Both the position numbers and the translations under genes were made by a program. The notes beneath the pieces are model-generated. The model ran no database searches. It was not told the DNA's origin and worked only from the letters and a program-made list of their open reading frames with translations. Positions 844 to 58,462 of a DNA stretch of 64,000 nucleotides are shown here, in pieces (position 1 is the first letter of the stretch; every line of letters starts with the position of its first letter). Origin of the DNA: an uncultured Candidatus Saccharibacteria bacterium (lineage in GTDB: Bacteria; Patescibacteriota; Minisyncoccia; Phycocordibacterales; CSBR16-119); contig CAZPVH010000003.1 of NCBI GenBank assembly GCA_964589975.1, positions 5,608-69,607 on the forward strand, in the 5' to 3' direction.

Positions 844-1797
844 TTATACGAGTTCGAAAAACGTTTCCCAGTACCCGACTTCGAGCTTTGGATGAGAGAG
901 CATGGCGCCCATGCTCGTGGCGCAGATATCAGAGCGGCCGCGCCAGAAGCTTTTTCGGATCTCATAACCGTGCGAGCGAAGGAACTCAACGATTTCTCTG
1001 GCCGAAGAGTCTTTTTTATGAAGAAGCTCTGAATGAATTTCAATAAAGAAATACTTCGGCCTGTTACCCTCTGCTAAGGCCTTCTCCGAACCTTTCAATA
1101 TCTCTTTTTCATACCCCTCAACATCCATCCGGATGAAATCAACTTTCTTAAACTTGAGGAAATCATCGAGCGTCATGATTTCGACTTCGACTTCTTCGTA
1201 TTTCATACCCATATCTTCGCGCTTAATGAAGCTTGACAGGTTACCACGATCATAAACATAGAATTTTGCCTTGCCTCTGTTATCACCGAAAGCGGCCTGA
1301 TGGAGATCTGCGTTTCGAATATTATTTAGCTCCAAATTTTTCTTGAGTGAAGCAAAATTGTGCGGAGCTGGTTCGATGGCGTAGAGATGTCCGGTCGGAC
1401 CGGCGAGTTTCGTTTCGATAAGCGCGTAGTAGCCAATGTTCGCGCCAACTTCAAGAATCTTCATACCAGGAGTAATGATGCTTTTTACTTCTTCTGTTGA
1501 ATTTTTCTCATGAACACCATAGAGCGCCAATTCACGAGATATGCCGAGATCATTTAGATCAAGGATCATCATATTTCCTTGAACTTTTTTCATAATTTTC
1601 CCGTTCTTGAAAACGATGTAGAGAAATTTAAGAGGAATGTACTCGCGGAAAAATCGCTTCACTATAGTGAAAGCGACCGAGGCAGTCTTGCCAACAAAAA
1701 CAACCGGGCCCTTTTCCCTCAGAACCTTTATCCCCTTTTTAAAAAGGTTGTCGTTTGTTTTTAGGAGCGTATTTTTTAAATTTGATAGTCTTTTCAT
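844..1797 (-). CDS. FkbM-family SAM-dependent methyltransferase
   Basis: ILEVGANIGYYAL Rossmann/SAM motif with FkbM-like architecture. Confidence 0.75.
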   Translation of the reverse strand: MKRLSNLKNTLLKTNDNLFKKGIKVLREKGPVVFVGKTASVAFTIVKRFFREYIPLKFLYIVFKNGKIMKKVQGNMMILDLNDLGISRELALYGVHEKNSTEEVKSIITPGMKILEVGANIGYYALIETKLAGPTGHLYAIEPAPHNFASLKKNLELNNIRNADLHQAAFGDNRGKAKFYVYDRGNLSSFIKREDMGMKYEEVEVEIMTLDDFLKFKKVDFIRMDVEGYEKEILKGSEKALAEGNRPKYFFIEIHSELLHKKDSSAREIVEFLRSHGYEIRKSFWRGRSDICATSMGAMLSHPKLEVGYWETFFELV

Positions 1798-13759: not shown

Positions 13760-14321
13760 TTATTAAATGATTATCGTTATTAATTTTCGGGAAGCCTTCG
13801 CCTTTTATTGACGAAGAAGTCCCGTTGCACGCCAACCGATAAATCAGCCGGCGCGGCTTGTCCAGAGCTTGCGCTCCGGATTTCGTTTTGAAGATTTTAA
13901 ACTCTTCAAAACAGACAGACTTTCTTTGACTTCCACTCTCTGCCTTGTGGACGAGAGCGGAAAACGAAAGCTTAAGATCTGCCTTGTCGACATGGCGGAC
14001 CTAAACCCTCGACAAAATAAAATTACCGAGTTTTTAAAACTCGAAAAATTTTTTTATTGTCAATGATCAAGTATCCTTGGGATTTCTCCCCGGCCAAGCA
14101 GTCTCCCGCAAGGCCCAACAATTTTACAACCACCTGACCCAGAGGCCAAATGGTTTGTGGATAACCCTTTTACAGATTACCCCCAAATCATCGCATATTC
14201 TGGTAAAAAACTCAATACTGGGTTTTTTAGGAACACTGATGACTCGACACTTATGACGGCGCAAGAAAAGCCATATTACATAAGGACTATTTGACAATAA
14301 TAAAATTTAATTGCCTAAATG

Positions 14322-19910: not shown

Positions 19911-20001
19911 CTCCGCGAAGCAGAATATTTCTTTTTTGAGTCCGAGGACCTAGTGCGAAGACACGATCCCGCAGGACGAGAAAAAGAAATGTTCTGCGGA
20001 G
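19911..20001. repeat. conserved-core stem-loop element, copy A (core 19942-19975)
   Basis: Core CCGAGGACCTAGtgcgaagacaCGATCCCGCAGG inside an imperfect ~20-bp inverted repeat; it abuts the stop of the minus-strand RNase gene and precedes the hairpin terminator at 19875-19900. Confidence 0.7.
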
Positions 20002-27795: not shown

Positions 27796-27829
27796 GAGTT
27801 CTTGTTTTTCGAGATTATAGAGAAAGACC

Positions 27830-28594
27830 CTACTTTGTCAATACGATAGGACCCTTCTCGGTTATGGCGACAGTATGTTCAAAGTGGGCTGAGAGTGATG
27901 CGTCGTCGGTGATATATGTGTATTCGTCATCTGTCACACAGACTTCCCCGCTTCCGATGTTAAGCATCGGCTCAATCGCTATAACCATGCCAACGACAAG
28001 CTTCTCACCACTGCCAGCCTTACCATAGTTCGGCACACAAGGATCTTCGTGCACGCTGTAACCAACACCGTGACCAGAAAGAATTTTTACAATTCCATAA
28101 CCTAGAGGCTTCACAAAAGATTCAACAGCGTGGCCGATGTCGCCCGTGGTGTTCCCCACTTTCGCTGCTTTGACCGCGCGCTCCAGAGCTTCGCGCGTCG
28201 CTTTCATGAGCGCCGTTGCTTCTTTTGAAACTTTTCCAACCGGAACAGTGATGGCGCCGTCGGTAATGAGACCTTTATGAACAAGCCCGAGGTCGAGTGA
28301 AACAATATCTCCTTCTTCGAGTAAAACGTCTTTATTCGGAATCCCGTGCACCACTTCGTCATTTATGGAAACGCAGAGTGCCGCCGGATACGGATATGAG
28401 ACCCCTTCGGGTGTGTAATTGAGAAATGCCGGCTTATCTCCTCCTTCTTTGATGAGTTTTCTAGCCAAGATGTCTAGCGCTTTTGTCGAGACGCCGGGTA
28501 AGGCCGCTTTTGCGACTTCACGAAGAATAGCGGCATGGCGTCGGCCGCCTTCTTTCATCGTCTCTATTTCTTTTTCTGACTTCAGCCTGATCAT
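27830..28594 (-). CDS. map: type I methionyl aminopeptidase
   Basis: MetAP pita-bread fold motifs (DIVSLDLG...HG.GY). Confidence 0.9.
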   Translation of the reverse strand: MIRLKSEKEIETMKEGGRRHAAILREVAKAALPGVSTKALDILARKLIKEGGDKPAFLNYTPEGVSYPYPAALCVSINDEVVHGIPNKDVLLEEGDIVSLDLGLVHKGLITDGAITVPVGKVSKEATALMKATREALERAVKAAKVGNTTGDIGHAVESFVKPLGYGIVKILSGHGVGYSVHEDPCVPNYGKAGSGEKLVVGMVIAIEPMLNIGSGEVCVTDDEYTYITDDASLSAHFEHTVAITEKGPIVLTK

Positions 28595-30301: not shown

Positions 30302-30781
30302 CTATTTAACTTCTGGCAACGACTCCTCCTCAACCATTTCCTCAATCTTCTTGTCAACAGCTGCTTCATCCATCGGAGCCGCGCCGCCTGCGGCTTCCGC
30401 GGCTGTTCTCTTGACTGGTCGCTGGTAAGCAAGTTTTGGGGTTGCCAATGTGCTCTCTCGGACAGTCTTCACGATTATGAATCGGAGAATATCGAGGTTC
30501 TTATCCATCAGCGCCTTGAATCCTTCGATCTCTGATGCTTCGATTTCAAACTTTATCCAACCAAAGTATGCTGTTCTAAATCGGCGAACTTTGTTTTCAA
30601 TCTCCTTTCCAAGCTCGTAAGCAAGCTCTCGCATCTGAGGAAACTGTTCAGCAATGACTGATGCTTCCATCTTCGCCAAGGTATCCTTTATACCAGTGAC
30701 AACTTTAGTAACTTCGTCTTCTGACAAGTTCGGGAGAACATGGTATCCGAGCTCGTAGATTTTCTTGTTTGTTTCTTCCAT
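30302..30781 (-). CDS. rpsF: 30S ribosomal protein S6 (with C-terminal extension)
   Basis: S6-like N-terminal domain; position upstream of ssb-rpsR. Confidence 0.8.
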   Translation of the reverse strand: MEETNKKIYELGYHVLPNLSEDEVTKVVTGIKDTLAKMEASVIAEQFPQMRELAYELGKEIENKVRRFRTAYFGWIKFEIEASEIEGFKALMDKNLDILRFIIVKTVRESTLATPKLAYQRPVKRTAAEAAGGAAPMDEAAVDKKIEEMVEEESLPEVK

Positions 30782-30911
30782 AATTTTTACTTTATTTATA
30801 ATGTTTTATCCAATAAAAAAACGCATCGTATCGGACCAAGCGACGGCCTGTAATTTCAAGGCAGTCGAACGAGACGTTGTAGGGATATTAGTATAAATCT
30901 TCTTTTTTGGC

Positions 30912-31103
30912 AAGAGAAAAGCCTTGTCATCGACAAGGCTTTTCGGGCTGAATCGTGCATGGGGCGATGAACCCCTACCGATACCTACCGTATGTTGATC
31001 CCCCTAGGGAGACTGCGGCTGAAGAACTTTAGGCCATAGCGGGAGCGGCATTTTGCCGCCCCGCCACAGCCTTTCGGAATTTGGTGTTTTGGACTTTTTG
31101 TTC
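30912..31103 (-). ncRNA. candidate ~190-nt structured noncoding RNA of unknown class
   Basis: Bounded by the promoter above and a hairpin plus U-tract terminator (30920-30940). No ORF with an RBS; contains an extended GC-rich helix (GGCUGUGGCGGGGCGGC-AAAAU-GCCGCUCCCGCUAUGGCC) and further hairpins. Confidence 0.3.
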
Positions 31104-31109
31104 TCTCAG

Positions 31110-31137
31110 ACTATAGCATATACGAAATATTTGTCAA
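31110..31137 (-). promoter_or_regulatory. sigma70-like promoter (TTGACA-16-TGcTATAGT) driving a noncoding transcript toward rpsF
   Basis: On the minus strand: tgcTTGACAaatatttcgtatatgcTATAGT, with a TGn extended -10. Confidence 0.5.
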
Positions 31138-31150
31138 GCAATTTTCATTA

Positions 31151-31187
31151 TCCTTAAAAAGGAAAAGCCCCGCGTAAGGCGAGGCTT
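31151..31187 (-). terminator. intrinsic terminator of the tatD transcript
   Basis: aagccccgcgtaaggcgaggctt hairpin followed by UUUUCCUUUUU on the minus strand. Confidence 0.55.
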
Positions 31188-31376
31188 CTTGGATCTGTCA
31201 CAAGGGGCGACAGACTTCCATCAAGATCTTCATCTTCAAAAGTACCGACATCCCTCGACGGGAGGAGGACATGGACATCCTCCTTGTTCCCGCCGGGAAT
31301 GCATCTACAGAACATCAGCTGAAGTCTTTCGACCCACTATCGTGTTTGCAGCACTGCCAATGTCCGTACTTTTATA

Positions 31377-32189
31377 TCACAATGGCCATACTGGGTCAAC
31401 GCAGAACAAATTTTTGACGTTTTGGAGAATTTGAAGGCGGACGGATTCTGGGTCGAGCCCTTTGATTTCCGCAATTTTCTTTACGATTTCTTCTACCATC
31501 CACGGCTCGCATTCCTTCCCTCTATAAGGATTTGGCGCAACAAATGGTGCGTCTGTTTCGGTAAGGATCCGATCGATCGGTGTCATTCGAATGACTTCGT
31601 CATAATCTCTTGCGAATGTGATTACACCGGTGAATGATAAGTAAAACCCGAGTTTCAGGAAACGCTCTGCGACATCAGGACTACCAACAAAGAAGTGGAC
31701 GTCGCCGCGGATATTTTGATCTTGGCGAGCTTCAAGAATTTCTAGGACATCTTCATATGCATCCATTGTTCCCTTTTGAGGACGAACATGCAGAATTAAG
31801 GGAAGATTTTTTTCGATCGCAAGATCAATTTGTTTAATGAAAATTTCTTTCTGAAGATTTTTTGTTTCTATATCGCTCGCTTCAATACGGAAATAATCGA
31901 GCCCACATTCACCAATCGCAACAACCTTATCCTTGCTTGCCAACTCTTTGAACTTATCAAGATCAAACTCTTTCTTAACAGCGTCACTAGGATGAAAACC
32001 GACTGAGGCGAATAAGTTCGCAGATTTTTGCGCAATTTCCACCGCGAGCAAAGAAGTATCGTAGTCGGTGCCGACAGTAATCGTGCCAACTTCTTTTTCT
32101 TCGAGAACTTTTATTATCTCACCTTGACGCTCCGACAGAGGAGACAAATTCAAATGAGAATGAATATCGAAATATTTCATACTAGGCAA
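31377..32189 (-). CDS. tatD: TatD-family metal-dependent hydrolase (DNase)
   Basis: MKYFDIHSHLNL start and TatD fold; conserved metG-tatD pairing. Confidence 0.85.
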   Translation of the reverse strand: MPSMKYFDIHSHLNLSPLSERQGEIIKVLEEKEVGTITVGTDYDTSLLAVEIAQKSANLFASVGFHPSDAVKKEFDLDKFKELASKDKVVAIGECGLDYFRIEASDIETKNLQKEIFIKQIDLAIEKNLPLILHVRPQKGTMDAYEDVLEILEARQDQNIRGDVHFFVGSPDVAERFLKLGFYLSFTGVITFARDYDEVIRMTPIDRILTETDAPFVAPNPYRGKECEPWMVEEIVKKIAEIKGLDPESVRLQILQNVKNLFCVDPVWPL

Positions 32190-58377: not shown

Positions 58378-58462
58378 GCGGAGCAAAATCTGAATTTTCT
58401 GAACCCGAGGACCTAGCAAAGCGATCCCGCAGCGGTGAAGAAAATTCAGATTTTGCGGAGCG
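58378..58462. repeat. conserved-core stem-loop element, copy D (core 58405-58432)
   Basis: Core CCGAGGACCTAGcaaagCGATCCCGCAG inside a 17-bp inverted repeat; it lies between the fusA stop (58467) and the hairpin terminator at 58341-58364. Confidence 0.7.

Follow-up and report, generated by a model that had tools for sequence, protein, structure and literature searches.

Our analysis suggests that the spacer between tatD and rpsF of a Paceibacteria/Parcubacteria (CPR) genome contains a real, independent gene for a non-coding RNA, and we consider this likely. The gene, here called RNA A, has the hallmarks by which stand-alone sRNA genes are recognized: its own promoter, its own intrinsic terminator and no conserved coding potential. 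It also shows a highly stable fold and partial conservation, and it is independent of the rpsF promoter. RNA A represents a new family within a well-known category, the orphan small RNA genes of bacteria. We rate at about even chances the full explanation, in which RNA A is a stand-alone gene of a subclade-restricted family whose product would act in trans as a candidate protein-binding platform. To our knowledge, regulatory or structural RNAs are hardly known from the CPR/Patescibacteria.

The window, i.e. the whole stretch of 64,000 nucleotides (64 kb) that was analyzed, was placed in the Paceibacteria/Parcubacteria by comparison of its S6 protein. The minus strand carries, in this order, metG (33663-32182), tatD (32189-31377), a 595-nt spacer, rpsF (30781-30302), ssb and rpsR. 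RNA A is the RNA gene flagged by an earlier, sequence-only reading of this DNA, and RNA B is its neighbor upstream in the same spacer. Related loci that were compared with the window are given L-numbers (L001, L089, L097 etc.); L082 is an unrelated metagenome contig. The earlier account of the locus holds in that it described a discrete, structured non-coding transcript, but it missed RNA B, the modular and fast evolution of the family, and the emptiness of the tatD-rpsF slot in most relatives.

Promoter and terminator of RNA A

The predicted features of the RNA A gene are as follows.

31132-31137, minus strand: -35 element TTGACA, with a conserved AAAATtGC just before it
31110-31118, minus strand: extended -10 element TGcTATAGT (TG at 31118-31117, TATAGT at 31115-31110), separated from the -35 by a 16-nt spacer
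30912-31104, minus strand: predicted RNA A transcript of ~193 nt, with its 3′ end in the U-tract
31104-31100, minus strand: AGAAC of the closing helix P1, paired with GUUCU in the minimum-energy fold
31073-31099, minus strand: CA-rich 27-nt segment AAAAAGUCCAAAACACCAAAUUCCGAA, predicted by the fold to be mostly single-stranded
31032-31071, minus strand: long hairpin M, GGCUGUGGCGGGGCGGC / GCCGCUCCCGCUAUGGCC, predicted by the fold to have 17 bp, of which three are G.U, and a single bulged U
31021-31031, minus strand: conserved linker UAAAGUUCUUC, whose GUUCU pairs in P1 (minimum-energy fold and alignment)
30998-31013, minus strand: small hairpin UCUCC-CUAG-GGGGA, then conserved AUCAACAUA (minimum-energy fold)
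30946-30985, minus strand: third, species-specific hairpin domain (minimum-energy fold)
30912-30944, minus strand: intrinsic terminator with a 13-bp stem and a GAU loop, followed by UUUUCUCUU (sequence and fold)

The promoter TTGACA-16-TGcTATAGT had been reported with the correct sequence and coordinates, and it scores 11/12 with an extended -10. Only two sites scoring at least 11/12 occur in the 64 kb, and the RNA A promoter alone among them carries the TG; block shuffles yield an expectation of 0.12 TG-extended sites of at least 11/12 per 64-kb window. The window’s sole 12/12 promoter (TTGACA-16-TATAAT; 27808-27841, minus strand) is located at the 3′ end of the map gene and precedes a 78-aa ORF (27795-27559). 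The transcription start of RNA A was inferred at 6-8 nt past the -10 element.

The terminator stem proposed at 30920-30940, ~190 nt downstream, is also present. Its core, AGCCUUGUC-GAU-GACAAGGCU (30940-30920), is lengthened by A-U pairs to 30944-30916, and seven of the nine nucleotides after the stem are U. This U-tract overlaps the -35 element of the rpsF promoter. We predict that a near-consensus, σ70-type promoter with an extended -10 drives transcription of RNA A, and that the strong intrinsic terminator ends it as a stable non-coding RNA of ~193 nt. The product would be abundant and folded, and would act in trans.

Predicted fold and coding potential

RNA A has a minimum free energy of -82.3 kcal/mol, compared with -55.2 ± 4.3 kcal/mol for dinucleotide shuffles (z = -6.3), and 0 of 200 shuffles equaled it. 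The GC content is 0.56-0.58 in the RNA A interval and 0.33-0.41 in its flanks, in agreement with the high GC and self-complementarity noted in the sequence-only reading. Both the minimum-energy and the centroid fold consist of a row of four independent hairpins, and the 3′ end, being the terminator, is not paired with the 5′ end. The minus strand gives a more stable fold and a stronger z-score than the plus strand. Moreover, the three G.U pairs of the long helix would, as read from the sequence, become A.C mismatches on the plus strand. Together, the stronger z-score and the G.U pairs point to transcription from the minus strand.

An extended helix of 18 bp had been claimed for this interval. 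The helix is real (31071-31032), but it has 17 bp plus one bulged U. Two further hairpins that had been proposed, UCUCC-CUAG-GGGGA and the GGGG-UUCAUCG-CCCC stem, are both present in the minimum-energy fold; the latter belongs to the third hairpin domain, which also contains two CGGUAGG repeats. No conserved ORF was found in RNA A, as its short ORFs are without an RBS and are unconserved in L089, L001 and L097. The claim that the interval has no ORF with an RBS is therefore upheld, whereas the stated maximum of 15 codons is not: a 34-codon ATG ORF (30960-30856), likewise without an RBS, starts within RNA A and crosses its terminator.

Strong folding alone is not special in this genome, since other spacers, too, are dense in hairpins. 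The most structured spacer of the window (13770-14300; -209.9 kcal/mol, z = -9.8) is strongly strand-asymmetric and has no Rfam match. This 530-nt intergenic stretch, on the minus strand, is composed almost entirely of consecutive, near-perfect hairpins. Two other gene-flanking spacers on the minus strand (19930-19990 and 58380-58450) have in common a ~60-nt repeat, CUGCGGGAUCG..(U)UGC.CUAGGUCCUCGG..UCA.AAAA, which lies inside long inverted repeats with a terminator after each copy (z of -7 to -10).

A conserved core and its possible function

A core of ~70-100 nt is common to the RNA A of the window and three other species (L089, L001 and L097). The significantly similar part, of ~70 nt, consists of the long hairpin's 3′ strand, then (U)AAGUUCUU and a spacer, a small hairpin with CCC-loop-GGG, and AUCAnnAUA. 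The conserved portion of RNA A is its 5′ domain, with the helix P1, the CA-rich single-stranded segment, hairpin M and the small hairpin. Over the ~70-nt core, the window is 76% identical to L089 across 67 nt (E = 4e-10) and 68% identical to L097 across 47 nt, while L001 and L097 share 72% over 65 nt. The S6 proteins of L089 and the window are 78% identical by BLASTP and 81% in a MAFFT alignment. The string AAGUUCUU is kept in L089, L001, L095 and L097, and the 3′ strand of the long hairpin can be aligned with L089, L001 and L097. A profile built from the four core sequences matches just those four. An nhmmer search of 80 rpsF loci with RNA A gave matches only in the promoter and the rpsF leader. 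Full-length members of the family could not be aligned with MAFFT and RNAalifold. No repeat copies of RNA A were found elsewhere in the 64-kb window, and neither two pattern scans of viral contigs nor blastn against phage genomes gave a match.

Both core hairpins recur when each core sequence is folded independently. Compared by hand in the order window/L001/L097, base pair 3 of the long hairpin reads C-G/U-A/U-A, base pair 4 U.G/U-A/C-G and base pair 5 G.U/C-G/C-G. The homologs of the small hairpin are UUCCC-UAAA-GGGAA (L089), ACCC-UUCG-GGGU (L001) and ACCC-CUAG-GGGU (L097), with outer pairs of U-A in L089, A-U in L001 and L097, and C-G/U.G in the window. The three sequences in which the 5′ side is available all have the closing helix GAAC/GUUC; the contig of L089 (assembly GCA_020049755.1) starts inside the long hairpin, so that its 5′ part is missing from the comparison. 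These compensatory changes come from three or four sequences, and with so few the covariation in the core is suggestive rather than statistical. A comparison of the region upstream of rpsF had been proposed in the sequence-only reading. It produced a ~70-nt core with compensatory pairs in four species, but the 3′ half of RNA A (~90 nt) has no alignable counterpart in any homolog, L089 included. The position of the core also differs: it lies at the start of the transcript in the window, and in the middle of the RNA in L001 (~340 nt) and L097 (~585 nt).

How might such an RNA work? Conservation in the family is concentrated in stems and the adjoining linker, and the unpaired 5′ stretch is unconserved; for this reason we favor protein binding over base pairing. 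The conserved hairpin module may be a binding platform for a protein, which it could sequester or scaffold. As a specific mechanism for RNA A, however, protein binding is put forward only tentatively, and we would not bet on it.

An alternative is that RNA A is a base-pairing sRNA, in which the CA-rich 5′ segment (31099-31073) or the AAGUUCUU linker serves as a seed for mRNAs and the hairpins stabilize the molecule. RNA A does have the classic layout of such an sRNA, in that an unstructured 5′ region precedes a folded body that ends in an intrinsic terminator, and AAGUUCUU is the best conserved single-stranded string. However, L001 and L097 have not retained the 27-nt 5′ segment, of which AAGUCC, near the 5′ end, is shared with L091 and L087. 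A crude duplex scan of RNA A against 56 translation-initiation regions of the window did not outperform scans with shuffled RNA. The complement, GAAGAACTT, has mildly enriched matches, but these do not lie at gene starts, and in the longer family members (340-585 nt) the core sits mid-molecule. We therefore regard a base-pairing role as rather unlikely.

RNA B, a predicted second RNA gene upstream

The first ~215 nt of the tatD-rpsF spacer, immediately upstream of RNA A, are occupied by a second predicted RNA gene.

31155-31399, minus strand: RNA B gene of ~200 nt, including its promoter (RNA at ~31365-31155), recognized by promoter, fold and terminator

The promoter of RNA B, TTGACC (31399-31394)-17-TGaTATAAA (31379-31371), has a -10 element that overlaps the tatD stop codon, and its terminator lies at 31189-31163. 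The predicted fold is a three-way junction (z = -5.1). RNA B has no Rfam match. Its core has the form CAUUCCCGGCGGG-hairpin-CCCGUCGAGGGAUGUCGGUACUUUU, and the base of the hairpin is invariant: CAUUCCCGGCGGG/CCCGyCGaGGGAUG with a bulged A, then UCGGUACUUUU. RNA B is better conserved than RNA A; L087, L088 and L090 carry the core CAUUCCCGGCGGG-hairpin-CCCGyCGAGGGAUGUCGGUACUUUU almost without change, and RNA B is recognized there by its covariance model with scores of 75-89 bits. A covariance model of the hairpin (R1) recovers the four RNA B copies, with a marginal match in L095 (16 bits) and a weak one in L091.

The shared layout and a GGCGGG...CCCGC helix made the two RNAs look like paralogs by eye. 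This relationship has no objective support, since the model of the RNA B hairpin still misses RNA A when its filters are turned off. Also considered and dropped were the hammerhead-like CUGAUG strings of RNA B, as the defining core is incomplete and Rfam is silent.

The tatD-rpsF slot in related genomes

In most relatives, the slot is empty. The spacer upstream of rpsF is <200 nt in 58 of 80 representative genomes, and rpsF typically follows ~110 nt after tatD. In one subclade, a single RNA gene or a pair of them is inserted in the slot, with lengths between 190 and ~585 nt. The inserts of L004, L005, L011, L091, L095 and L097 open with a near-identical promoter, spacer included, of the pattern AAAATyGCTTGACAAATAnTTTnTATATGCTA; this pattern has no further occurrence in the window or in those six loci. 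The promoter is shared among species whose S6 proteins are just 42-72% identical. At the other end, the insert finishes in a terminator whose tail, GGCTTTTCTCTTGCCAAAA, doubles as the -35 element of rpsF, and this junction is conserved in L004, L005, L097, L087 and L011. Between these boundaries, the six promoter-sharing inserts have a GC-rich interior of 260 to ~585 nt with fold z-scores of -5 to -7, and the interiors are mostly unalignable between species. Judged by these comparisons, the outer boundaries of the RNA A family appear to be old and conserved, and the interior seems to change by gain, loss and replacement of modules.

The longest member of the family is found in L097 (1228-1840), where a single RNA of ~585 nt (z = -6.9) with the same promoter contains a tandem pair of long-hairpin modules. 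L097 and L091 have the 13-nt string AACCGCCUGGUGU exactly in common.

The slot is not always used in this way. RNA B is present alone in L087, L088, L090 and L096, and there is no RNA gene in the close relatives L002, L093, L094 and L098. In L099 (1878-2393; also in L100), a relative whose TatD is 83% identical, an ORF of 171 aa, which has a promoter and a terminator of its own, occupies the slot in place of an RNA gene; the ORF belongs to no Pfam or PADLOC family. Since an ORF can take the place of the RNA gene, the tatD-rpsF slot behaves as a small, variable cargo site. The occurrence among close relatives of slots that lack an RNA gene, hold only RNA B or bear an ORF indicates that the RNA gene is dispensable and the slot plastic, and the gene in this slot appears to be old as well. 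Overall, RNA A looks like an undescribed and fast-evolving family that is limited to one subclade of the Paceibacteria (Patescibacteria/CPR).

A metagenome scan with the conserved promoter pattern gave six loci, none of which (0/6) has the tatD-rpsF context; these are a recombinase gene, an array of phage-like promoters and a stretch of high GC content. In L082 (~1000-1726, minus strand), an unrelated metagenome contig of 173 kb, the identical 26-nt promoter precedes a ~700-nt stretch far richer in GC than its AT-rich surroundings, with a terminator at the end.

A slot of this kind could also be an insertion or recombination hot spot filled with hairpins, decayed terminators and a fossil promoter, so that any transcript is neutral or selfish and RNA A has no function of its own. 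The patchy presence of the gene among close relatives and the unrelated ORF of L099 fit this idea, as do the unalignable interior outside the ~70-nt core, the other hairpin arrays of the window and the resemblance of modules made of a long hairpin plus (A)AGUUCUUUU to terminators, which is clear in L095. On the other hand, a near-perfect promoter, spacer included, has been kept across lineages with S6 only ~42% identical, and the core helices show compensatory changes. CPR/Patescibacteria genomes, at ~1 Mb, are small and dense and offer little room for non-functional DNA, and RNA A has neither repeat copies in the window nor a phage match. On balance, we find a functionless RNA A improbable.

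Relationship of RNA A to rpsF and its leader

The rpsF gene possesses its own promoter and leader.

30782-30913, minus strand: rpsF promoter and conserved leader, separate from RNA A

The promoter scores 9/12 and is situated between RNA A and rpsF, with the sequence TTGCCA-17-TAATAT (30913-30885). The leader (~30878-30816, ~60 nt) is 88-98% identical across the clade, relatives without an RNA gene included. Its stem, inner hairpin and CUUGGUCCGAUA (CCG) bulge are arranged as in the S6:S18 type, for which a conserved CCG/CCR bulge between the hairpin and the 3′ strand of the closing stem has been published (PMC3854524). Rfam did not detect this S6:S18-type element. The leader spans positions ~35-95 nt ahead of the start codon, with a U-run after the closing stem. 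This distance and the U-run suggest transcription attenuation rather than masking of the RBS.

RNA A ends 131 nt before the rpsF start codon, as the ~130 nt given previously had indicated. Because the terminator (30944-30912) and the separate promoter (30913-30885) lie between them, RNA A is not the rpsF leader. The argument made earlier against a simple riboswitch is strengthened by a promoter and leader that follow the terminator and are kept where the RNA is absent, and we predict that RNA A is no rpsF riboswitch.

A role in cis on the rpsF-ssb-rpsR operon could still take the form of regulated read-through of the terminator, as in an attenuator-type leader, or of insulation from tatD transcription. 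RNA A is directly upstream of rpsF on the same strand, and in all family members the terminator tail is fused to the rpsF -35. Further, ribosomal protein operons need strong promoters, and that of rpsF scores only 9/12. However, the terminator is strong (13-bp stem, 7 U in 9 nt), there is no evident alternative anti-terminator pairing, and the rpsF promoter and S6:S18-type leader are unchanged in L002, L093, L094 and L098, where the RNA gene is missing. A cis role therefore seems to us quite improbable.

The proximity to rpsF also allows a more speculative view of the family, to which we give equally little weight: the modular, fast-evolving RNAs of 190 to ~585 nt might be decoys or scaffolds for S6:S18 or another protein of the 30S platform. 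They would then be built from repeated long-hairpin modules, and the version in the window would be split into two genes.

A narrower form of this idea is that an S6:S18-type site in RNA A itself titrates S6:S18, or a neighboring 30S platform protein, in trans. Such titration would tie the supply of ribosomal proteins to the amount of the RNA. RNA A adjoins rpsF-rpsR, the predicted fold leaves UUCCGAAA single-stranded in the stretch that joins the closing helix to the long hairpin, and the string UCCGA can be found in rpsF leaders of the clade as well. Yet the CCG lies 5′ of the hairpin in RNA A, whereas it lies 3′ in the leader and in 16S rRNA, and L001 lacks it in the corresponding segment. 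Moreover, finding a matching 5-mer within 27 nt has a chance expectation of ~3%. Such a titrating site in RNA A is very unlikely. The S6:S18 motif was rejected as a class for RNA A, given that its sole unpaired CCG (31077-31075) is 5′ of the hairpin and absent from L001.

Comparison with known RNA classes

Searches with Rfam 15 at the gathering score gave no match in the 64-kb window or in 40 related loci. In E-value mode, only noise was obtained in four regions, including 30400-31600 at E <= 10 with relaxed filters. The best Rfam match in the region was FasX, which was rejected because it scored 28 bits against a cut-off of 100, was on the wrong strand and covered the terminator alone. ARAGORN found no tRNA or tmRNA in the 64 kb. 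An Rfam/Infernal scan had been suggested with the sequence-only reading, and it revealed no known class. In accordance with the same reading, SRP RNA and RNase P RNA have no Rfam match at either the gathering or the E-value threshold, and tmRNA and tRNA-like RNAs were rejected by ARAGORN and Rfam. No Rfam match was found for raiA, ROOL, GOLLD or OLE in the window or in the loci with long relatives. A T-loop-like GGGGUUCAUCGCCCC in RNA A was dropped, as the defining core is incomplete and Rfam is silent.

6S RNA forms a closed rod with a central bubble and is conserved in shape more than in sequence. A 6S-like identity had been left open for RNA A, and it is not supported: no model of RF00013 and its clan matches at E <= 10, homologous loci included, and the homologs range from 190 to ~585 nt. 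The two ends of RNA A do not pair with each other, and there is no central bubble but a row of hairpins. Like 6S RNA, RNA A is of similar size and probably abundant, and its promoter and position are kept while its sequence is poorly conserved. It differs in having no model match, closing stem, central bubble or terminal stem, and in being missing from close relatives. A divergent housekeeping RNA (6S, or a reduced SRP, RNase P or tmRNA) is highly improbable, for although ~190 nt and a strong promoter recall 6S, which keeps its shape and not its sequence, no Rfam match at E <= 10 with relaxed filters and no ARAGORN match was obtained, and the row of hairpins, homologs of 190-585 nt and loss in close relatives do not fit.

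The option of a novel sRNA, in contrast, agrees with every test that was run, as no Rfam, tRNA or tmRNA match was found. Among known systems, RNA A resembles stand-alone sRNA genes such as those of the Rsa RNAs of Staphylococcus and the SR RNAs of Bacillus. These, too, are independent intergenic units of 100-300 nt that have a σ70 promoter but no ORF, fold into stable hairpins, end in a Rho-independent terminator and occur within a narrow phylogenetic range. In contrast to these, the conserved part of RNA A is a helical module and not an unpaired seed, and the length of its family varies three-fold through gain and loss of modules. The raiA motif, ROOL and OLE are, like RNA A, GC-rich and heavily folded and, as predicted for RNA A, independently transcribed, and the L097 relative reaches ~585 nt; conservation of RNA A is far lower, however, and it is restricted to one Paceibacteria subclade and often lost. 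RNA A resembles the S6:S18 motif (PMC3854524) in its location upstream of rpsF and in an unpaired CCG beside a hairpin, but its CCG is unconserved and flanks the hairpin on the opposite side, and RNA A is cut off from rpsF by a terminator and a promoter.

Conclusions

In conclusion, the RNA A locus is a concrete candidate for an RNA gene whose promoter and boundaries have been kept over deep divergence while its body has been remodeled. It is of interest for its CPR host, its evolution with fixed ends and a fluid interior, its tandem arrangement with RNA B, and long relatives that approach the size of the ‘ornate’ RNAs. If RNA A were to have no function, it would be an example of how hairpin-rich spacers can mimic genes in CPR genomes. 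If the family did provide decoys or scaffolds for a 30S platform protein, it would point to an RNA-based control of ribosome production in bacteria with minimal genomes. If it is expressed and functional, RNA A would be among the first lineage-specific RNAs described for the CPR radiation, and would represent an RNA gene that evolves by gain and loss of modules at a fixed address beside a ribosomal protein operon.
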